A stretch of DNA of 63,827 bases, filler included, from Dirinaria sp. TL-2023a (Eukaryota), in the NCBI GenBank assembly GCA_051941275.1. It is 7 parts of 7 records of this genome, joined end to end, with 100 filler letters (N's around TTAATTAATTAA, not from the genome) between each part and the next. Parts side by side here need not be neighbours in the genome. Positions count along the whole stretch, not along the records: positions 54,817 to 63,827 come from JAVEBF010001105.1; 6 more parts are not named here. The stretch is one strand, 5' to 3'. A program made the position numbers and the translations under genes. Each line of letters begins with the position of its first letter. The first letter of the stretch is position 1. Below the pieces are notes generated by a model. That model ran no database searches. It was not told where the DNA came from and worked only from the letters and a program-made list of their open reading frames with translations. Positions 7,001-63,827 of the stretch are shown here, one piece after another.

Positions 7001-9049
7001 TACTGAAGAGACGCCAGGGAAGCGGATGAAAATTCCTCCAGCTCTTGAGCCACAGCTCAAGTAACCATGGGCGTCAATCCTTACCTTGCTGGTGGGACGG
7101 GATGACTCTCTCAAAGCTTGCCTTCTCCGTCCCAGTTCCGAGAGCGATGATCAGCGAGCATCCCACGGCTGTCCTTTCAACTTCCATCATTCGTGATCCT
7201 TCCACACCCTGTCGAGCCCGTCCTTCGTCCTTTTACTATTTCGTAACATAAAATAATCAGGCTCTGCCGCAACGGGAATGAACTTTCTCCAACTTCCCCC
7301 ATTGCTCATCCTCCATGCCACCAAATGGGCAGTGTGGCTCTCGGGGAGGGAATGGCGTCCCGAGGAGATCTCGTGGCACAGCGCTTATGGTCCTTCACTG
7401 ATTGAGTCTTTGACACGGCGGTAGATGATAAGCAATGGGAACTGGAACTCCACCACGCCGATGACTAAGGACGCCAATTAGCCTGTCGCGATTACCGGAA
7501 CAGGGGAAGAGGCGTGATGCAAGCAGAGGCGCTAGACCCCAAACCGTGCTAGCTGTTGAAGGGTCTACCCGCCATTGCTGATCAATGAGAAGCGGTGATA
7601 GGCCAGAGCCGAGTGGGTGTGGAGGCGTGCGCTGGCACTTGGCAGCAAGCGTAGTCGAAAAGACCGGGGATCACGAGAATCAGACCGAGCGCAGAAGCGC
7701 CCATAGGCTCGCCTTGGCCCAAATTCACCCGTATTTCCAGTCACTTTGTGTGATGGTCGACAACGTGGCACGAAAACAGAGCTCCTTCTCTCTACCAGCT
7801 ACGTTGCCCCCCCTGAAAATGCAGATCGCGAGGGGAGGGGGCTGGTTCATGCCAATCGCCAACCCCCCTGCCCAGCACTCCGAATATCGGAGGGGCTCAT
7901 ATTTGGGAGTTGGGACAATTGCTGTACCCAGTTGACGCACAGTGCATGAATATTCCAAAGAAACTAGGCTGGGGAATTATCTGCCCTTGCGTAGCCTGAA
8001 GATGAGAGAGTCTCAGACAATCTCTCACACGATGACCTGCTGAGTTCCTGGCAATATCATGCAACGCAAGGCACGGTACAGGGACACGCACATCATCGTG
8101 TGGCGATACAATCCAGATTCCCACGGCATCTACCGCAAATCCGCAACAGGCTATTCACTGTTGCCTATCAAAGTCTAGAGGCGTGGAGGGAATGATATGC
8201 TCCGAATTAGACTTTCTATACGTATCTATTCATCCTGTTATGGAATTCTCGCGAGCCTTCCCAATCCCTGATTGCCATCCCAGCGGTAGCAGGACACTTT
8301 TTTTTTCAGGAGATTCTTGTCTTTGAACAGAGGCACAGTTGTTTCAACTCTGGTGCACGCCTCGCTAGATATGTGCAACCCTGGGGTGTATGTAGTGAAA
8401 ATGATCCGAGCGACTGTGTTGACAACCTCGAATATCGTCGAGGTACGCAGACAAGACCAGAGTCTCTTAATCGACGTCTCACGGAATCTGCATCCTTCCG
8501 ATGCCCATATATCACAAATTACCAGATTAGAGTTTCGGCTAGGCTAAGCAATGACGAAGGCAGCCCTTGAGTCAGCTACACAAGGGCTGATTGACCGCCC
8601 GGACAACTTTCACGCTCCTCCTATCACCACCCACCCAAGCCTTTCGTAGCGTGGTGCCTTCACAAGCCAGATAGCTGCAACGAAAATTCTAGTCGATTGG
8701 ATGGAGACGCCCCTCTGCAGCAACCCGCCCATGCATATGCGAGTGCTTTGAATGGTCCCGCCGGGGGATGCTTGCCGGAAAGAGGCGCGACTTGCAACTT
8801 CCATCCTGATCTAGCAAGCCAAGTCCAGCACCCCAGTTACGGCGGTCGCATATGCAGTGCGAGTATTGGAAGGTTTCAAGAGCTGGAAGAGGCGCAAAAG
8901 ATCGGTTCATCAAGTAAGATGAGGTGCTTTTTCGCCAAATGGGTGGTCGATCTCAGTGAAGATAGAAAGCTCTTCGCCAGATTGGCCTTTACTTTTTATT
9001 GCTGGGATCGGGGAAGAGCCCGACCAGTCATCAGCAACCACGTCTGTTT

Positions 9050-9149
9050 NNNNNNNNNNNNNNNNNNNNNNNNNNNNNNNNNNNNNNNNNNNNTTAATTA
9101 ATTAANNNNNNNNNNNNNNNNNNNNNNNNNNNNNNNNNNNNNNNNNNNN
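9050..9149. other. Artificial contig spacer N44-TTAATTAATTAA-N44
   Basis: 100-nt N block containing a six-frame stop linker. Confidence 0.99.
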
Positions 9150-27324: not shown

Positions 27325-27424
27325 NNNNNNNNNNNNNNNNNNNNNNNNNNNNNNNNNNNNNNNNNNNNTTAATTAATTAANNNNNNNNNNNNNNNNNNNN
27401 NNNNNNNNNNNNNNNNNNNNNNNN
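27325..27424. other. Artificial contig spacer
   Basis: N44-TTAATTAATTAA-N44. Confidence 0.99.
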
Positions 27425-36456: not shown

Positions 36457-36556
36457 NNNNNNNNNNNNNNNNNNNNNNNNNNNNNNNNNNNNNNNNNNNN
36501 TTAATTAATTAANNNNNNNNNNNNNNNNNNNNNNNNNNNNNNNNNNNNNNNNNNNN
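36457..36556. other. Artificial contig spacer
   Basis: N44-TTAATTAATTAA-N44. Confidence 0.99.
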
Positions 36557-45587: not shown

Positions 45588-45687
45588 NNNNNNNNNNNNN
45601 NNNNNNNNNNNNNNNNNNNNNNNNNNNNNNNTTAATTAATTAANNNNNNNNNNNNNNNNNNNNNNNNNNNNNNNNNNNNNNNNNNNN
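45588..45687. other. Artificial contig spacer
   Basis: N44-TTAATTAATTAA-N44. Confidence 0.99.
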
Positions 45688-51874: not shown

Positions 51875-54716
51875 TGTTGCACAATCGCTTTGATGATAGT
51901 GGTGGTTGGATATGGATTTCAGGGATGTTGTTAGACTGAGTGGACTTGTTAAGAATGGAAACGGAGGCAGAAGAAGCTCAGTATTTGTATTTGGAGGCGA
52001 TGACAGATTTGATGAAGATACGAGTCAGGGGATGAACTGGCGTCCAATGAGTGAAAAGGCTCGCCAAGACCTCGGGAATAGGCTGTGCTGTGAGTGTTCC
52101 ATGTTTCCGGAGGCCTCCGAGGCAAAATTTGTGCATCAGAATCATGGCAGTGAAGCAACATAATTGTACACACAATCCGAAGATTAGGCTCTTCTTTTGT
52201 CACGCGGCGCTCTTGAATTCTGTGGGCGGGCGTCAAAGCACGAGCGTCTTGTCGCTGAAACAGCAACCAACTCTTTCGATATGCACTTGTTGGACGCCGG
52301 GTTGCAGGGGCGAATACCTAGTCAGAGCATAACAACGCAGCATCTAGGGAAAGAGCGTCTGACTATGGGTATACACGGCGTACAGAGGGAAGACTGTAAA
52401 GGGTTGCTGTGTATAAACTTTGAAGACGGAGTTCTTCGAATAGTATATTTATGAACTTAACTGGGATAGAAAGTAGGAAAAAGTTATGGCATCAGGAGCG
52501 AGGTCAAATAAGGACAGCGTTAAGAGGAGTAGTATGGGTATGTAGGCGCCAAATGCGAGCAACAAAGAAATGAATTATAGCACCCGCTCGAGGACATGAA
52601 TAGCAGGAAAGAGTAAAACATGTGCTGGCTATTAAGCGCTAGAAAATTTGAGCATCAGAGGATATCCAGTATTTTAAATTCTGTAGATTATATGACATGG
52701 ATTGGCTGCTTCTATAGTTTCGTATCAACCAACCCAAAACATCCTAGAGTTTTGTACTTTCTATTAGTAACAAAAATGCAATATTGCGGCTCCTTTTCAA
52801 AATGTCCAGCGTATAGCTCTCTGCATAGAATAGTCCCATTGGCGTGCAACTTAACTTATTCGTCAGGCATAAATGGCGAAGAGTCCTAAATCTGCGTTTC
52901 AGAGAAGTAGAGTAATTCGTGTACTTGTGACTTTGTAAATGAGTAAGGTTGTGATCCTGTACTGATTAAGAATTTTCTGCCCTTAAAACGCTTGCAATCG
53001 AACGCATTCCGCAATTGCAGCATCTGATGTGGTAGCATCTACGCCGTGGTCAAGCCCGTTTAGTTGATGTGTGAAGTAGGCCCTAGCATTTCTAAGGGGC
53101 TCGGAGGCTGTGCTACTGGACGTTATGATTAAGAAAATTCTGAGATCCTGATCTGGACAAAAATACCTTGACCTAGAAGCACGAAAGAGATTATAGAGGG
53201 CAAATTTCAAGGATCATAACGCATTAAGACCGACGAAAACAGCATACCACAAGTAGACAGATGTAGTGAAATCTATGCCTGAAGGGACGGCTTACGAGGC
53301 CACTGTCTCGCAATGGTGATAGAGCGGCAGACTGTATACGTATACACCAGCAAGCCAACGTATTGCATATGCTAATGAGATCAATGCTCCTAAGGAATAG
53401 ACGAAAATCGGGGTATTGTATCTAGATTTTAGCACATTGCAACCAACGCAAAAGCAATTCGTACAATGAGTAAGACGTGGCAGAATAGCACTGCATTTAC
53501 ATGAGAAATGCTCTTTGCTCTTCCTACCTAAGGGCAACGCAAAAGATCGGAGGTGAATGCTGGTGTGCTGTAGGATTTCTTGGAGTCAAAAGTCTCCATC
53601 GGGCTTGAGACATTGAACTATGATGATCCATATTCCTCTTGCAACGTGGAAACTTTCTCACAAAAGTGCGATTCCTTGACTTCAGCCGCTCCTCTATAGA
53701 TACGCATGACGCGAGCCTACAGGGAACATTCGCCATGAAACCTCTTTGTGTCCTCGTCAGAGGCCGAAGGGGCTGAGTTATCATGTTGCCCATTTGTTTT
53801 ATATACGATGAGGCAGAAGAGATGATCAACATTGAGCACTGAGCATCGAAACACAAGAGCGAATTAAGGAAAAATAAAATTCCGTAGTATGCATTTGAGC
53901 TCACCGGTCTCTCCATGAGTATGCCGCGCACGTGTGGACGATTTTATTCTGAGCGGGTGCTGTTATGATGAAAGTTTTCAGAACTGATAATCGGGCGCCC
54001 ACAGGTCTGTTCGAGCCAGCAGCGCCCCACACAGTGTCGTTGATGCAGAGAAAACTTTCCACCTTCATAGATATCTATGAGAAAGTTTGTAGGCTTCGAG
54101 AAGCGTTTAGTGGTACGCCTAGAAGATCCGTGAATGCCGAAGTATCACCTAAGATATCGCGTAGATCCTGAGCTTACCAAAAGCAGACGATGACGTTTCT
54201 CTTCATCGGATACACCTCCGTCTTGGAAGTTTTACACGGCCCCCATCTCTCAATTACCCGCTCACCTACATTATGTCACTTGAATTCTGATTTCTGACTT
54301 CGTCTTCAACCTCCACTCTTCAATTAACCCCAGGCTTCGTCAGAGGCACAGCAGTAATCCACGGGTAATCGACCCAGTCTTTCCAAAACCCCCCACATGT
54401 TGCAGAGTATCTATCTAACCACAACCTAGGCCGAGCCACAGAACTACCGCCGCAAAGCACGGCATCGAATCTAACTTCTGTAACCGGACCAAATAAAGGA
54501 ACGAAAGAAACAAAAAGAGAAAAAAAAAAACACCAACACAACTCCCATCCACCTCCTCAACCATGGCCCCCCTCAACCGCACCCTGACACACTATCTCCC
54601 CCTATCACTCACACCGCAAATCCCACCATCCAGACTCATCTCCACCTCATTATTACTAAAAGCCACTCACCACCCCCAACAACCACACCCACACCCACAA
54701 CAACAACAACAACAAC

Positions 54717-54816
54717 NNNNNNNNNNNNNNNNNNNNNNNNNNNNNNNNNNNNNNNNNNNNTTAATTAATTAANNNNNNNNNNNNNNNNNNNNNNNNNNNN
54801 NNNNNNNNNNNNNNNN
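54717..54816. other. Artificial contig spacer
   Basis: N44-TTAATTAATTAA-N44. Confidence 0.99.
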
Positions 54817-57800
54817 CCCATCACTCCGACCGATCCTGCTCCCTCGCTGTCGGGGTCGGGGGGTGTGGTGACCCCTTCTCCCGGCTCTCCCTCGCCCAGA
54901 GTGCCGGTTTTCGCCGCAGGTAGGTACACAAGGCATACGGAGAAGGAGCTGGGCTAACATGATGTGATAGCCGGCGAGGAACCCCTCGCCTGGTGCCGGC
55001 GGTGTGTGGGGAGGTTGGCGAATAGCTCCCAGACGCTATCATGCTCTGACATGACAATGCTGCACCTGTTGCTCCAGGCACGCGCCATCAGCTAAGTGTG
55101 CAATCCCGTGAATTATTGAGCGAGCTCATGAGTCGCCGAGCCAACAAGTATGTATCCGTTCTGTGGTATTACATATTTTACCTGGATTTTCTGACTTGGC
55201 ACTTTTTGCGCTCTTTTCGCCTCACCTTACCTGCGGAGCTTCTCATTCATGTTTCAAGTTGTTCCAAATCTTCGCTGTTTCGATCGAACGTCTGCGCGCT
55301 TCGATGTCTTGTTCTTACTGCGAAATTTTTTTCTTCTGGACGCTTCAGGCAAGAGTGGGTCATTGCAATTGGGAACTCCGAAGAAGAAAGTACATAAAGG
55401 ACGGATTATCAAGGACGAGCACTTCGAACAAGAAACCGAGGTTAGAATTCTGCTGTGAGCATCAAATGTACATAATGCTGACCATGACGGAAAACTTGTA
55501 TCAGATCCAAACTCCACCAAGGATCTTTACAATTCAAGACGAATCTTAGCAGTACGTCGAGATCTATACCAGGAAACAGGAAAAGGTTCAATAAGCGAGC
55601 AGTCGTTGATCGATGTTCAAATCTTTAGAATGGAAGTGAGCGAGATGAAGCTGGACTATTTGATCTTTCTTCACGGTACCAACCAACATGTGGTTGATGA
55701 AATGGTGCCAAATGACGGGGAAAGTATTGCACATCTTATACGGGCATCGCCAAATTGATCTCAAACCAGCCCAACAAAGGCGAACCTATTAGAGAATATC
55801 TTATATCAGAAGCTGTGTAAGAAAGCCGTGCGTGTAATGATTTGAGACATGCAGTGATGAGCTTAAGGCAAGAACTATATATTAAGAGAGGACTCCGCTG
55901 ACGCTTCACTGCATAGAGACATATCATGGATAGGAGAAGAAATGAAGCGAGTTTGCCAATGATGTTTGGCAAACCAGGCAATGACGTTCATTCCTCTCAC
56001 ATCTATCACAGAAACACCCACTGTTCTCCTGTCTGACAAAAGACGGTCCACTCTTACATCTACTGCAAGCACGCGTACTCATTCGACTGCTCAGGCCACA
56101 TCTACTGCAACAAGAGCAACTCAGAGCTTCTACTGCATCGATCTCATCTCAGGCTTTCGGCTGAACACCGATACACTCGTCGGAAGTTCAAGCGACGATC
56201 AAAGCCGCCACGCAAGCGGTGAGGGAAAATGGCGGCAAAGAGGCCACGTCTTCCAAGTATATCGGAGATTCTCAGGTCAATACCTTTAGGGATCATGAAT
56301 CGCGGGAGAGGGTCTACGTCTACGGGCCAACGCAAGGACCACAAAATTCTCTCGCCACCGAATGACTGACTCTAATTGCGTCGGAGTCGACAAAACCGTC
56401 CGTGTCAGGCACCTCACTGCTCTCATGTCCCAAGGATCCTATTAAATCGTACACAACGCTGGGCATATTGAAGAAGATGGAAAAAAGGTTAGCGGCACAA
56501 CAGCAGATCTCTGAGTAAGAGGAAAGGTAAGAATCAGAGCAAGAGCAGTCAGGTTCAAGACTCGCTAGATCCAGAATAACTCCTCATGCTATGTGCTATG
56601 ACATGCCGGTAGCAGCCAAGCCAGACCCCTGTAGGGGATATTGTGCACGGAAAATCAGACAATGATACAACATCGATTGAATCAAGGGTGGAAATCATAT
56701 AAGACAGGTTTGAAGCATGTTTCAGGTAACGACGTGCACTTATCAATAGGGAAAAGCACTGGGAATGCAGGGAGCTAATTTCATGATATGAAATGGAGAG
56801 GTAAATGACTCTTAGAAAGGAAATTCCTCTTTATGAGTCAAATACTTCCCATCTAGTTATTCAACGAATCTTATTGATGATAATGTTATAGCCAGACTTG
56901 ATAAAATACTCAGAGGAAACACTGCGCTTACGAAAATATTCTCAAGCTGATACGGTATGAGTCGAGTCAGTTGATGTAGAGTTTCTTCTAAAACGCTCTT
57001 TATCGATTCAAGCTTTTTGTTTTCGCTTTATCTCAAATTTCAATGAGTTTCAATGTCGATTTTCAATTTCGAAGCTGTGTTTCAAAGAGTCCGTCCGCTA
57101 ACGTTGGACTTTGTACAGCGGCAGTCAAGCGTCTAAAGAGTATGACCATGAGGAATGTGATACGCGAGACTCTCTCCAATCTATATTAAGTTCAACAGGA
57201 ATCGATACAGTGAGGGGGAGAAGGTGATCGGTTTTCTGAGAAGCTTCTGGTAATTAAACCTAACCTTCGAGCACTGAATGAAAGTCACGTTGTCAAGAAT
57301 CAAAATAAAAAGGTTATTGAGTCTCTCGAGGACAAAAGAATTGAAAATCGATCAATTCACATGAATGGAACTACGTGTTCTTTAAAAATCGACGCTGAGC
57401 AGTGTTTTCAATGGTATTGCCGATCCGGTCAGTATCATACTCAGTAGACTCTGATCTTCGTACGCTTTCTAAAACAACTCATTTCCCGGAGGCGATCAGG
57501 CTAGTCTGTTACACAATGATTACAATTGAATCATTCGATAACGGTTTACATCAGCTTGATTAAATATCGGATGGGAATCCACTGTCCAGCTCCTCGTCAT
57601 CCGATCTCGGGCGTGCTTAGTACAAGATGAGTGTAGAGACCGCGCGCTACAACACGTGCATGGCATGGGCTCTCATTCTTTTCCAGTCTACGCCCGGAAA
57701 AAGGTATAATTGAGTAGCTCTTGCGGAAATTGCAAGTTTCCGGACCATCGAATCGGATGCAGTTTGTACGGTCATGATCGCCTCAGTATGATCACTCAGG

Positions 57801-57963
57801 TTATCTGCTTTACGAGCCACGATCAATAAGCCCAAAGGCAATGAAAAGAATTATCGACAGAAGTCTTGAATCAGAAAGACCAACCACTGCTTTAAGCGAG
57901 CCAGTCCATTCTTTTCTGCTTACTGAAAAATTTTTCCAGATTCCCTGACTGTTTCCTACAGAA

Positions 57964-60010
57964 CATGTCGCCTATGGGAAATATGCGCTTCGCAAGATGC
58001 TGCGGACAAACAAAAGTCCTGATAAACGCCCGATATTATTTGTCAAATCGTCAAATATGTCAACATTGCAAGAGCTCAGTTGACTAAGTGGCGCGTGTAG
58101 AGACTGTGTCCTTTTCTCTTTACTAACACACTTCCTCAAATCTAACAGTGAATCTTCCATGCTATCAATCTTAACAAGATTGCAATGATAACATTATCAA
58201 ACAGCAATCTTAGCATTGCTGATATCACCAGCAGCTTTTTCGTATTACGAACAGTTTCAGCTACAACAGCTTGAGTGAAAACAACAACATTAGCAATTTC
58301 AACAGCAACATCATCAGTCAACCTACATACACCATACCTCTCACTTTCATCAGCCGCGTGGGATGCTTGACATTGCCAGATAGCAGGCAAATTTCCATTG
58401 ATATCCGATTTCGCTACTTTGTACACATCACTTCTATAACAACTCGTACTCATCACAGACCTGCATTGAAGGTTATTCAACTAACATCAACTTATCCCTT
58501 TTCAGCGTGTATGCGCTGCTGTATTTTTTAGCGCGCAATCGATCGCCGTCAACCCGGAGCTTGGTATTCTCAGAGCACGACTTCAAAGACGATATCGAAG
58601 TACGGAGGATCAAGTTGAGAACCTTGGGCAGAACAGTATTTCTTATAATAAACTCCTTCCAAATCAAAACATACACAAAATACATACAACAATTCAGAGA
58701 AACCTTGCAAGATATCAAATCCTTCCAAATCTTGCACGCTTCGAATATCGCGCCATTTGCGTTAGGATCAGATTCCACAAGAGAAATCTAGTAAAAAGAT
58801 TAGAGGGAAGGTATTTCGACTACGTTTCAAATTTCATTCAAAACATGACTCTTGAAAACATTGAGGGGAAAATCCCAATAATTTGAATTTCAAACTATCG
58901 GAGCAAACGAAAGCTGAAATGACGACATACGATAAAGGCCAGATTCAAAAGTCTGTGGAGCGAGCCTTCGACACTTTTCTTCAGATAATTGAGAAGATCG
59001 AAGTAAATTGTAAGTCTCAGTGTGGCGATGATGTATTAGTTTTTGAACGAAATAAGTTTTTCATTGCATGTGATGAGAGAATTTGCTAATATCTCAAGGA
59101 CAAGAATTTCCTGGGAAAGAGAGCGGCTTAAGAGATGAGCTTGACGTGGGAGCGGAGCAGTTGAGTTATTTTATATCAATGATGTGATTTCGTTCTCTCT
59201 CTTTGATCTCTTACACTCTTCAAATCTGATCTGGATTCATTGCCAGATCATTCATCACGAGGATCAAGTCTGAATGAATCACAAACTCTTTCATGCTTCT
59301 GAAAAAAAACTTAATTTCGAATCTCTCAATTTGAGTTTTCAAAAGAAGCTTTCATTAGAGAGGCTTTCAATTTTGTCTTGAAATTCGTGGATCGTGAGAA
59401 AAGAAGCAATCAAATAGAAGCGATGAAAGCTGCTGCGAATAGTCTAAATGATCTCATGAAGTGAACAAGTTTTTTTTATCGTGACGAGCGAGTGTTCGAA
59501 GAGATGAAAACGAAATATGACATCGCGTTTTAAAATCTGATTGCACAGCTAAAAGAGATCATCGATATCGTCTCCCATGACAACAAGAGTGTCGATCGTC
59601 TCATTTTCGTCTCATTTTGAGCGTCTCCGAGCATAAAAAGCTGATTTTAAAAATCAGCAAGAAAGTTGAAATCATCTGATCGAAAATTTAATGATGCATA
59701 ATACAGAAGAAATTCTGAGACGTATTGAAATCGTAATGAGATAGACGAATGACGTCGAATTTCGTTCTCTCGAACAAGCTCAGTACGACGTCGTTAAGTT
59801 CAAATCTCGATTTGAAATTTCTCTTTGATCAAAATCGAAATGCTTTTTGAGATATTCAGCAGCAGCTGAACTTCGTTATCGCTCGCATTCTCGAATATAT
59901 TAAAACATGTCAACAATCGAGTATGTCGAAAATACATTTTTTTTTTCTCGAGATCTCGTCTGACTCTCAGATCAAAAATTCGCACGCTCTCGATTTCAAA
60001 TCGCGATGTT
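57964..60010 (+). pseudogene. Heavily mutated gene or repeat relic with Q/H-rich and helical remnants
   Basis: Runs such as CAA CAA CAT TAG CAA TTT CAA CAG CAA CAT CAT CAG contain stops explicable as C>T or G>A changes. The AT-rich 3' part is almost free of CC/GG. Confidence 0.45.
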
Positions 60011-60180
60011 TGAAAACATGTTACGGTTGCATGATTTTGTGACCATTGGTGATAGTCAGATTCTGTAGTTGCCGGGTTGTGACCATTGACGGTGGTCATG
60101 GCAACCATTTTTATTTAGGCAACCGTTCGATAGTTAGAACGAGCCAACTTTTCTACCATCAAAGAACCGTGCCATAACAC

Positions 60181-61158
60181 ATGATAGCATCAACGGTCAT
60201 TCATCCGGCGGATTTTATCGTCGAGAGCAAACCAAGATGGTCACGGAAGAGCAAAGGAGAGGCGGCTAAAGTATTCATATCTGGTGTTTGGTACTATGCG
60301 ACACACGGCGAGTATATCTTCGTCGATGACGAAGGCGCGCGCTTGAGGAATAGACACCCAAGCATGGTAAGATGCATAGTGCAAGCATCATCATTTGCAA
60401 AGAAGACCACGGTGAAGATATCTGTACCACAAAAGGTATCACCATTTGCGTCCACGACACCGTCAGCGAAGACGCCAGTTCCTGTTACTGCACCATCAAA
60501 GGTGTCACCGTTTATCGCCTCCACGCCATCAAAAATGACACCAACCTCCAAACCACCACTCATCGATCCTACGATAGTGAGTGTCGAAGAGGACGAAGAT
60601 GAGAATGAAGACGAAGAGAACGATGACCAAGATGATAAAAGTATGCTGAGTGGACCGTTTTCCGCTACTTCATTCAACATCGTACCATCAACGATGCAAC
60701 AATCTTCCCAATTTCATATTTTGTTCACTACCACACCATTCGAAGTCCAACTACAGACGGTAAAGTCAATGATGTTTATATCGTCGCAAACCCCGAGATC
60801 ACCATCTACGGGTTCCGAATCTCCAAGAATCACATTATTCACGATCTCACACAAGTTCTTATCTGACGCACCATCATCATTCAAACGAACGCGTATTGAT
60901 CGTTAATTGTCATCTGCACCACTATCAAGAGCAGCAACGGCACTTCAGACGTAATTGATAGCGAAAGCGGCTCGCGCTTACGAGACCATCGCCCGAGACA
61001 CGCTCATTGATATTGTTGAGATAATGTCGTCGATTGGCGGCGAAGCGTACGACAAGTTGCTGAAACTTTACGAGGAGGCAAAGGCAAAGATGACGGACAC
61101 GGTTAGAATCATTGAGGATGGCGGATTGGACTCTTTTGTCTCCTCTCCAGTGACTTGA
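60181..61158 (+). pseudogene. Orphan reading frame interrupted by two TAA codons
   Basis: ORFs 60181-60906 and 60955-61158 share a frame, separated by TAA at 60904 and 60952. It contains an internal duplication KVSPF..TPS and an acidic run. Confidence 0.5.
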
Positions 61159-61219
61159 TTGCATGTAAGCTATCTGATAGAATCTCTAAGCTGTTAAATT
61201 GAAAATTCAATTTCTCCCT

Positions 61220-62314
61220 TTAGCTGTTCAATATGGTCTCGGGAAGCATATTCTCGCCGTCGATTGTGGCGATCCGTCGCCGCCTCAGGATATCATTAAT
61301 GTCTTCAAGGTGAGTAGTCATAGAACGCCAACCCCACTTGCCATGAGTCCTGATGCAGCTTTGAGACGGGCTACTCTATGTTGATTCTGTGGATTCCTCA
61401 GCTTTTCTTTGTCAGAATTTCTCTGATTCTATTTTATCGATACGTTTTCACTTCACATGTTCGGCGAGACAAAATCGCAACGTGGTTTGTGGGCGCCTGT
61501 ATCATGACTTGGGCAATTGCTTCGCTGATAGTTTTTATCCTTCAATGCTCCCCAATCCATTATTTTTGGGATCGCACCTAGTCACTGGTTGGATTCGAGC
61601 CACCCATCCACGACAAGTTCCTCCCTTCATTGAACCACTGAGCTGCTCCGATGTTGCTCAGCACCATTTCCGATTTTTAAGTCTTGCTACTTCTCGGGAT
61701 TGCCCTGTGACCTCTACGAATGCCTCGGTCCAAGAAAGTGGGTCTCTTTTTGTTGTTCTCGCTCGGTGCTTTGTAAGTGTCTGCTTTCGAAGACGCTACA
61801 TCCAAGTGGGTTGACAGGTGTGTGGCGCGAGCATTGTGAAAATCTATTATGTCTTCGCAGTCGATAACAGCTCGGACTCGACCTGTAAGATCAGCATTCT
61901 ACAGCGATGATTTCTGCTTGTACTAATCTTCTCTTAGGTTTCAATATAGAAATACCCTTGTGGATCATTGCCGAGTGTTGCATCCGCCTAGTTTGTGCAT
62001 GTATCCCATGCACGGCGCTTCTTGCTCGAATCGTAACGATGGGTCCTATCGCTGCATTCAGCTCAAAGAAACCCTCGTTAATCACCACCCCGAAGCAACT
62101 ACAAGCTTGACCTGGCGGCCACCGTTTGCACTCTGGGAAAAAGAGTCCAATTGATCTTTCTGAGACAAATACCGAGTTGCATGAATGGTCCCATGGCAGG
62201 AACGCGCAGAGCCACATATCCGGAGAAAGCTCCCCCTGGATGCAATCACATATTTCTGCAACGGCCGGGTTGATGATGTTGAAGACATCTGGTGATGGTC
62301 GGATTCAAGCTTAA
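61220..62314 (+). pseudogene. PTH11-like (fungal rhodopsin-domain) integral membrane protein pseudogene, 5'-truncated
   Basis: AVQYGLGKHI, RISLILFYRYVF, QCSPIHYFWDR, LSTISDF, L*PLRMPRSKKVGLFLLFSLG and WIIAECCIRLVCACIP are present, with four in-frame stops between 61579 and 61710. Confidence 0.8.
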
Positions 62315-62841
62315 GACCGGATTGCCGGAGGCGGGGAGGGAATGTTGGTCATCAGGGCTGTTATGCCTACCTAATACATTGGCATAAACCTCGTATCGGT
62401 ATGTGCATCTGTATCGGCGTATAGTAGCTGTGCAAAACGGCTTCGGGATGTTTCTAATCACCGAATGGCGAACAAAGAAAAGCTCAGCCCTCCACTGGGG
62501 CAAAGGAATCTATTTTAGCTTTAGGGCTTTGCACGGCATGTGACATCCATCTCATCCAGTGACAAATGAATCGCCACTCACATGTCAGATCCGGTTTCCT
62601 TCACTCCACATATTCCTAGATCATGATGTAAGCTATGGAGAAATCCAAGTCCTGTTCCCTTACTTACTTTACTCTCATCTCTGCCGAGAGGGACCCCATT
62701 ATCATTCCAGTTATCGTGCTTACCACTTTCTCGGCCTTGCTATCGACTCTGCCAGAAACCTGCCTTCAAAGTTCTCTATCAGATTCCGCTTTCCAAATCT
62801 ATTGATAGTCAGCTTCAAACCATAGTTCAACAGCACGAGCC

Positions 62842-63827
62842 ATGGATCATGTCTCGTCATCTGGCGAAGTAGCCGTAAAGATCTACAACTGTGACTCCTG
62901 GTACTATCATGACATCAAGCACCTCCCAGAGCCTACACGGCAGTTATTCGAAGAGTACAGCGGGATCCCTTCCGAGCAGGTGCTCGACCACATCCAGCAC
63001 ATGGTACGTATTTCCCCTCAAAGTTTTTTCTAACTTTTTTACTTTTCGCTTTTCACTTTATTCTTTTTCTTAATTTTTGGTCCACTGCGTGCAGTCTCTG
63101 TCCCTCTCTTCAGAAGCAAAAGTCGCCCGCGAAGATATGAAACTTGTCTCTGACATTCGTTCCAGAGATCTCGTGCCTTCGCGATATACCCGTACCCGTG
63201 CATTGGACAGCTACGGTTCCTGAATTTGAGCTTGAGCAACCACCCTCTCTACCCCGAAGTCATCTCGCGTCTTCGTCATCAGCACTTGACTGGGGAGCTT
63301 CAGAGCCTCAGTATCGATGGCCAGTATAGTGGTATATCTTACCAGCACCAGATACCACAGACTTTCCTCGACTTGGGTTGCTGTCTTGCGCAGGACTTGC
63401 GCAAACTCGTCTACGATGGAGCATCGCCCCACAACTTGTATGGATTGGATGTTGAAAGGAAGTTCATTGAGCTCAGTTATGAGCTGTTTCGGGATGCCGA
63501 TACGCTCAAGAGCCAGTTCGTGATCGACGATATGCTTCGCACAGACGCGGAGGAAGTCGACCTCCAGGTGCCACAAAATGCTAAACACAACGAGTCCGTA
63601 TCTCCGCCCAACGTAGTGCCTTTAGCTTCATTAGAGGGCAGAGTATCGATCATCGCCGCCAATTCTTTTCTCCATCTCTATGATTACTCGGATCAACTCA
63701 AGCTTGCCAAGCGAATCGAACGGCTCTTGTCTCCAGAACGTGGGTCTCTCATCCTTGGCCGCCAGATTGGTAGCAGTGTGCCTGGGGAATATAATGCTGT
63801 GGACAATAATGGAACACGCTTTTCGCA
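62842..63827 (+). CDS. SAM-dependent methyltransferase (AusD/Trt5-like family). Intron 63004-63165; runs off the window end.
   Basis: RQLFEEYSGIPSEQVLDHI|RSRAFAIYPYPCIGQLRFL..HPLYPEVISRL..FLDLGCCLAQDLRKLVYDGA..NLYGLD..ANSFLHLYDY..GSLILGRQIG. Confidence 0.88.

Follow-up and report, generated by a model that had tools for sequence, protein, structure and literature searches.

What process could strip a short piece of a fungal genome of nearly all its CC and GG dinucleotides and leave CpG and CpA in place? The question arises from a tract of about 0.9 kb in a 63,827-nucleotide (nt) stretch of DNA from Dirinaria sp. TL-2023a (assembly GCA_051941275.1), referred to below as the window. An earlier reading of the sequence (the original prediction) had proposed that a repeat-targeted C-to-T process converted the first C of CpC there, whichever strand it lay on, in a manner resembling repeat-induced point mutation (RIP) with an unusual site preference. 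We find that the tract is probably a relic of non-canonical hypermutation, judging from the composition of this one example. The window consists of seven contigs arranged by descending length (9,049 to 9,011 nt), and since spacers divide them, features on different contigs are not genomic neighbors. The tract and the parts of its surroundings needed for the analysis are as follows.

54817..63827, no strand: tract-bearing contig, 9,011 nt, the last piece of the window and the sole real genomic context of the tract
58501..59155, no strand: left flank, where depletion is mild and graded; CC+GG 6.1 and TC+GA 16.1 per 100 nt
59156..59626, no strand: less fully converted part of the tract; eight CC/GG in seven places, 0.9-2.1 per 100 nt vs. 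11.4 in the other contigs
59627..60025, no strand: tract core; 398 nt between consecutive CC/GG, GC content about 0.35, CG retained or enriched
60025..60026, no strand: sharp right edge, where CC+GG goes from 0.0 to 9.1 per 100 nt

Depletion of CC and GG

The depletion of CC and GG in the tract is a real and rare anomaly, far beyond chance. Positions 59161-60020 (860 nt; A 278, T 275, C 155, G 152) contain four CC and four GG, compared to 27.9 and 26.9 expected from base composition. The original prediction had counted about eight by hand, with none from about 59630 to 60020 and tens expected; the first two statements are exact, and the expectation comes to about 55. The eight dinucleotides start at 59233, 59243, 59261, 59362, 59389, 59574, 59575, and 59627, and the next one at 60025, so that there are none from 59629 to 60024. 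Spacing between CC/GG has a median of 6 nt across the window, and the tract contains both of the largest gaps, of 398 and 185 nt. Among 20,000 random sequences matched for base composition the CC/GG count was 54.8 ± 8.0, with a minimum of 28, and the probability that a given 398-nt stretch lacks both dinucleotides is 8e-11. Other dinucleotides are raised (TC, 96 vs. 49.6 expected; GA, 83 vs. 49.1; CG, 47 vs. 27.4) or lowered (TA, 31 vs. 88.9; AC, 27 vs. 50.1), while CA (52 vs. 50.1), TG (52 vs. 48.6), CT, and AG are near expectation. The earlier observation that CG, TC/GA, and CA/TG are abundant agrees with the counts, the first three being above expectation and the last two at it.

In a scan of dinucleotide observed/expected (o/e) ratios along the window, all ten 300-nt intervals with a CC+GG ratio below 0.5 are on the tract's contig. 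Seven of them cover the tract (0.00-0.41); six of these have ratios of 0.00-0.26, and the seventh, 59801-60100, crosses the right edge (0.41). The outside control consisted of 793,428 nt of fungal DNA, in the form of 80 metagenome loci centered on SHMT genes. They were retrieved with the SHMT of another contig (SHMT identity 57-92%, many 83-92%) and serve as composition controls only. This control DNA holds a single CC/GG gap of at least 120 nt (128 nt, GC content 0.25), and the gap in the tract is three times as long. The lowest CC+GG ratio over 7,731 control intervals of 300 nt is 0.36. Intervals with matching GC content (0.33-0.39) keep ratios of 0.59-1.45, so low GC content does not explain the tract.

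Along the contig, CC+GG falls from 8.3 per 100 nt at the far left (11.4 in the other contigs) to 6.1 at 58501-59160, then through 2.1, 0.9, 0.5, and 0.0 across the tract, and returns to 9.1 from position 60026. TC+GA in the less fully converted part reaches 20-22 per 100 nt, compared to 13.8. Where CC+GG reaches zero, CT+AG drops slightly (13.3 to 9.5), as expected from an additional, weaker conversion of CpT (see below). The tract is therefore discrete, with one sharp border (60025/60026) and a graded left side, a form shared with RIP, where sharp borders may be accompanied by leakage. The left flank may reflect spill-over of the same process, or it may simply be AT-rich non-coding DNA. Outside the tract the contig is mildly shifted too, with CC+GG ratios of 0.83-0.88 vs. 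0.94-0.98 in the other six contigs.

Composition compared with conversion models

If the tract was produced by conversion of ordinary local DNA, its full composition, and not only its lack of CC and GG, should follow from the model. We simulated saturating conversion (CpC>TpC and GpG>GpA) on 273 background segments. The simulation predicts CG 45, GC 34, GA 89, and TC 84 (observed 47, 28, 83, and 96), along with CA 57, TG 60, TA 42, and AT 80 (observed 52, 52, 31, and 90). Simulated conversion at CpA or CpG comes nowhere near the observed counts. The CG count of 47 is unchanged from the background (45 ± 11). Both the apparent enrichment of CG and the apparent depletion of TA are by-products, because their counts are close to those of unconverted sequence while the base composition has shifted. 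In trinucleotides, with strands pooled, ACC, CCC, CCG, CCT, and GCC occur 0-2 times in the tract, and TCA, TCG, and TCT (63, 55, and 56) approximate the background sums of TCN and CCN (62, 47, and 60). The 5′ neighbor had no effect on residual CC (ACC 0, CCC 1, GCC 2, TCC 5). The 4-mer spectrum matches that of converted background except for TCTC/GAGA (28 vs. 12), GATC (24 vs. 12), and a few words containing CC or GG that were seen once or twice.

Conversion fractions for the four CpN contexts were then fitted on a likelihood grid, with either the other six contigs or the contig's own flanks as background. The optimum is CpC 0.9, CpT 0.2-0.3, CpA 0, and CpG 0, a gain in log-likelihood of +216 (six contigs) or +142 (own flanks). 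A CpC-only model gains +192 and +127, respectively, whereas the likelihood falls for CpA-only (-66 and -72) and CpG-only (-55 and -71) models. The composition of the tract thus fits ordinary local DNA in which about 90% of CpC and 20-30% of CpT were converted and CpA and CpG were spared. Simulation, trinucleotides, and likelihood grid all support the proposed C-to-T change of the first C in CpC, together with its counterpart on the opposite strand, the support being compositional, and the weaker CpT>TpT conversion is a component that the original prediction did not include. Its exclusion of CpA-directed RIP and of CpG decay holds as well, given the lowered likelihoods and the unchanged CA/TG and CG counts.

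A runs test finds TC (96) and GA (83) intermixed along the tract (z = +0.45, compared to a background mean of -0.82 with a standard deviation of 1.24), which suggests that both strands were hit throughout, without strand-coordinated blocks. Context-dependent C>T and G>A changes also characterize APOBEC3G-type editing (CC>CT, GG>AG), ultraviolet (UV) damage at dipyrimidines, and the spectra of alkylating agents. APOBEC3G-like CC>CT was considered and rejected; it predicts CT 83, AG 86, and TA 70, whereas 52, 49, and 31 were observed, so the excess of CT/AG and TA that it would give is absent from the tract. Such editing would also be strand-biased, whereas here the strands are equally affected. 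UV damage would deplete TC, which is enriched here.

Relation to RIP and other hypermutation systems

In Neurospora, RIP (RID and DIM-2) produces C>T and G>A changes on both strands; it nearly saturates its preferred dinucleotide, depends on the 3′ neighbor, and leaves discrete tracts of about 1 kb with sharp borders and possible spill-over. On the conversion model fitted above, the tract would share these features. It differs in site preference, as Neurospora RIP prefers CpA, whereas the tract indicates CpC followed by CpT, with CpA and CpG spared. CpC>TpC is among the four formal dinucleotide types in RIPCAL, and its index, (CpC+GpG)/(TpC+GpA), describes exactly the change deduced for the tract, with a value of 0.04 compared to 0.74-0.98 in the six other contigs. 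In the RIPCAL description consulted, however, this type is a bookkeeping category and is not reported as a dominant one. RIP-like hypermutation in Basidiomycota indicates that contexts other than CpA are possible. That process destroys TCG, whereas TCG in the tract is at twice the background (55 vs. 27), and the host here is an ascomycete.

Among the literature matches listed, in the portions of those sources available, there was no report of a CpC-dominant RIP-like process, which is not proof of absence. No homologs of RID or DIM-2 were found among the large open reading frames (ORFs) scanned on the seven contigs of about 9 kb, a small part of the genome.

Origin of the tract

The results establish the composition of the tract, its rarity, its fit to the conversion model, its non-coding character, and the profile of its edges; that mutation made it, the direction of change, and any link to repeats are inferred. 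That a context-specific C>T process was responsible is, in our view, fairly likely, its chance being clearly above even. The process would have consisted of saturating transitions on both strands of one discrete non-coding segment of about 0.9 kb, converting about 90% of C before C and 20-30% of C before T, and leaving C before A or G alone. Dependence on the 3′ neighbor, saturation, tract size, and sharp borders are hallmarks of RIP-type processes. A mechanism of this type is the form of mutational origin that we favor; taken by itself it falls somewhat short of an even chance. Such a process would be directed by homology or heterochromatin and would act over several rounds on double-stranded DNA, with an enzyme whose 3′-neighbor preference is reversed relative to Neurospora RID and DIM-2. 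The interspersed sites on both strands fit repeated action on duplex DNA. The sharp right edge could mark the end of the recognized segment or a later rearrangement, and the graded left side could reflect lower intensity or spill-over.

Several results weigh against this reading. There is one tract only, with no sibling or ancestor found in the sequences searched, and the direction of change is deduced from composition alone. CpC-only conversion misfits AC (27 vs. 45 ± 8) and AA (112 vs. 80 ± 17), and the CpT term absorbs only part of these misfits. RIP is defined by action on a sequence that is or was duplicated. No second copy of the tract was found in the window by transition-tolerant Smith-Waterman alignment (best scores 60 and 58, compared to 50-62 for shuffled sequences) or in the 80 related loci (best score 65 vs. 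71 for a shuffled query), although both samples are small and the absence of copies in them says little. Halves and edges of the tract, compared with one another, scored no higher than shuffled sequences, so that neither terminal nor internal repeats were found, and phage and plasmid collections contain no match for it. All six frames of the tract have stops. Its 3-base periodicity is 0.45, compared to 4.7-12.6 in six real ORFs and a methyltransferase fragment; because simulated conversion of real ORFs keeps this value at 3-13, the ancestor of the tract was not an intact coding sequence, and therefore nothing marks the tract as a mobile element. Reading through stops gave no Pfam families, transposon domains included, in the six frames of 54817-60218. 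The read-through of frame +1 had no matches at E ≤ 0.001 among 1.84 billion protein representatives.

The classical indices also count against a RIP-type origin. Published thresholds are TpA/ApT of at least 0.89 and (CpA+TpG)/(ApC+GpT) of at most 1.03; the tract has 0.34 and 1.65, both on the wrong side. With these indices negative, it is not a member of canonical RIP and is at most RIP-like with a different site preference. The known precedents, to the extent that the accounts consulted cover them, point elsewhere too: the RID and DIM-2 pathways of Neurospora both prefer CpA, as does Dim2 of Zymoseptoria; the dominant types in species analyzed with RIPCAL are CpA, CpG, and CpT; RIP-like hypermutation in Basidiomycota is directed at CpG (TpCpG in Pucciniomycotina); and genomes of lichen fungi score positive on the classical indices.

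Four other explanations were weighed against a RIP-type process. The same scar could have been left on single-copy DNA, with no direction by repeats, by another cytosine deaminase or by damage of the guanine alkylation type (G preceded by a purine changed to A), and confined by chromatin state or transient exposure. We give this a minority share of the probability. Its compositional evidence is identical to that for a RIP-type process, searches of the window, the tract, and the 793 kb of relatives turned up neither copies nor repeat structure, and the deduced context (C>T where a pyrimidine follows; G>A where a purine precedes, GG above AG) resembles the spectra of SN1 alkylating agents, in which G>A follows a purine. 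Diffuse chemical damage would nevertheless hardly reach about 90% saturation within 0.9 kb beside a normal right flank, and saturation of one such segment is not expected from it. Enzymes of the AID/APOBEC and DddA types have a 5′-neighbor preference, for which the tract gives no sign, and there is no strand-coordinated clustering. Less likely again is a native composition, in which a non-coding element or foreign DNA was kept free of CC and GG by selection (e.g., motif avoidance) or by the bias of its source. The tract does lie in a promoter-proximal intergenic site, 338 nt upstream of a gene, and no ancestor or copy of it is known, but avoidance gives no reason for the other di-, tri-, and tetranucleotide counts to match converted local DNA. 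Nor does the 793 kb of fungal control DNA hold a comparable tract; searches of the tract gave no phage or plasmid match and no Rfam family, and a 23-nt tandem repeat was the sole motif to recur. Foreign origin is further opposed by the fungal sequence on either side, where the methyltransferase shares 58-68% identity with proteins of lichen fungi.

That the tract is a chimera, or arose as an error of assembly or sequencing, is very improbable. The window was built from metagenome-assembled contigs of about 9 kb, one of which ends in a poly-G run typical of sequencing artefacts, but the tract is located mid-contig (4.3 and 3.8 kb from the ends), and a chimeric joint would not give the graded transition on its left. 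No mode of sequencing error is known to us that would change about 90% of CC to TC, on the two strands alike, and do so at a single site. Classical RIP (CpA>TpA) and methylation-driven CpG decay have next to no standing. Both are known causes of GC-poor tracts in Pezizomycotina, and RIP is reported in lichen fungi, with sharp borders documented in lichen-forming species. The dinucleotide counts refute both: the best fit leaves CpA and CpG at 0 where RIP would show a CpA (or CpA/CpG) preference, and CG is not reduced (47 vs. 45 ± 11) nor CA and TG raised (52 each), as CpG decay would require. Across the whole window, no 500-nt interval passes stricter cut-offs (TpA/ApT > 1.15, substrate index < 0.75).

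We consider it rather doubtful that this lineage of lichen-forming ascomycetes holds a second, undescribed mutating pathway directed at C before a pyrimidine (CpC far above CpT) and sparing CpA and CpG. Relative to Neurospora RIP it would be a mirror image, and it would imply a cytosine methyltransferase or deaminase with a new 3′-neighbor specificity, an enzyme to be sought and of possible interest as a context-specific cytosine editor. Surveys of fungal RIP use indices tuned to CpA>TpA, to which a process whose target is CpC and whose product is TpC, not TpA, would be invisible; its tracts would be missed by every detector based on TpA/ApT. Should many more such tracts exist, they would point to hypermutation with a novel site preference in lichen-forming fungi, and would offer a further way to date and map silenced DNA where laboratory crosses are impossible. 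A lone tract would be no more than a curiosity.

Candidate elements and homologs

Two other identities for the tract were tried and rejected. A degraded transposable element was set aside, as there were no transposon domains, terminal repeats, or copies in the sequences searched, and a helical protein in frame +1 was rejected for its lack of 3-base periodicity (0.45). With its 19 stops replaced by X, the frame +1 read-through belongs to no Pfam family and has no similarity to the neighboring orphan protein described below. Rfam gave no family in the tract and one sub-threshold hit outside it, and the only tandem or recurring motif in tract and flanks was the 23-nt tandem repeat. A metagenome scan with the contig's methyltransferase, aimed at the orthologous locus, found no relative.

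Host and genomic surroundings

Protein matches indicate the host. The closest named match of an ORF with a DUF6601 domain, on another contig of the window, is a lichen-fungus assembly protein (67% identity), and the partial methyltransferase located 3′-most on the tract's contig shares 58-68% identity with proteins of a dozen Teloschistaceae assemblies. The sole database match of an orphan ORF next to the tract is 99% identical, evidently the same contig, and labeled as a metagenome-assembled lichen fungus. By these matches the host is a lichen-forming Lecanoromycete, an ascomycete, and the sequence on both flanks of the tract is assigned to a fungus. The remaining features are listed below.

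56801..57400, no strand: weaker patch poor in CC/GG and rich in TC/GA; CC+GG o/e 0.44-0.49, with gaps of up to 137 nt
60037..60098, + strand: two 22-nt direct repeats, 82% alike and 40 nt apart, just beyond the right edge and before the orphan gene
60364..61158, + strand: orphan two-exon gene; exons 60364-60639 and about 60964-61158, TGA stop
9050-9149, 18193-18292, 27325-27424, 36457-36556, 45588-45687, 54717-54816: six identical spacers (44 N, TTAATTAATTAA, 44 N)

The tract lies in the upstream intergenic region of the orphan gene, since the gene begins 338 nt downstream. The ORF at 60178-60906, which overlaps this gene, has a codon periodicity of 6.5, and the predicted product (157 amino acids, with an acidic, low-complexity middle) matched no Pfam family. 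The weaker patch at 56801-57400 is not significant alone (P of 3.5e-4 per start position for a 137-nt gap).

Some minor observations were made along the way. The two 22-nt direct repeats (TTGTGACCATTG...GTCA) each contain a short TGACCA/TGGTCA inverted pair and may form a pair of binding sites. The left 5 kb of the contig (54817-60025) is gene-poor, with low codon periodicity (1.3-2.0) and no ORF assigned to a Pfam family. Control loci L005-L011 (about position 7001 in each) are nearly identical around SHMT across assemblies, with the same index values per interval, which suggests that one lichen fungus was sampled repeatedly. The third contig ends (27295-27324) with nine G after a stretch rich in A, which resembles a sequencing poly-G tail and not biology, and the sixth (54687-54716) ends in a (CAA)n microsatellite, which is probably why the assembly stopped there.

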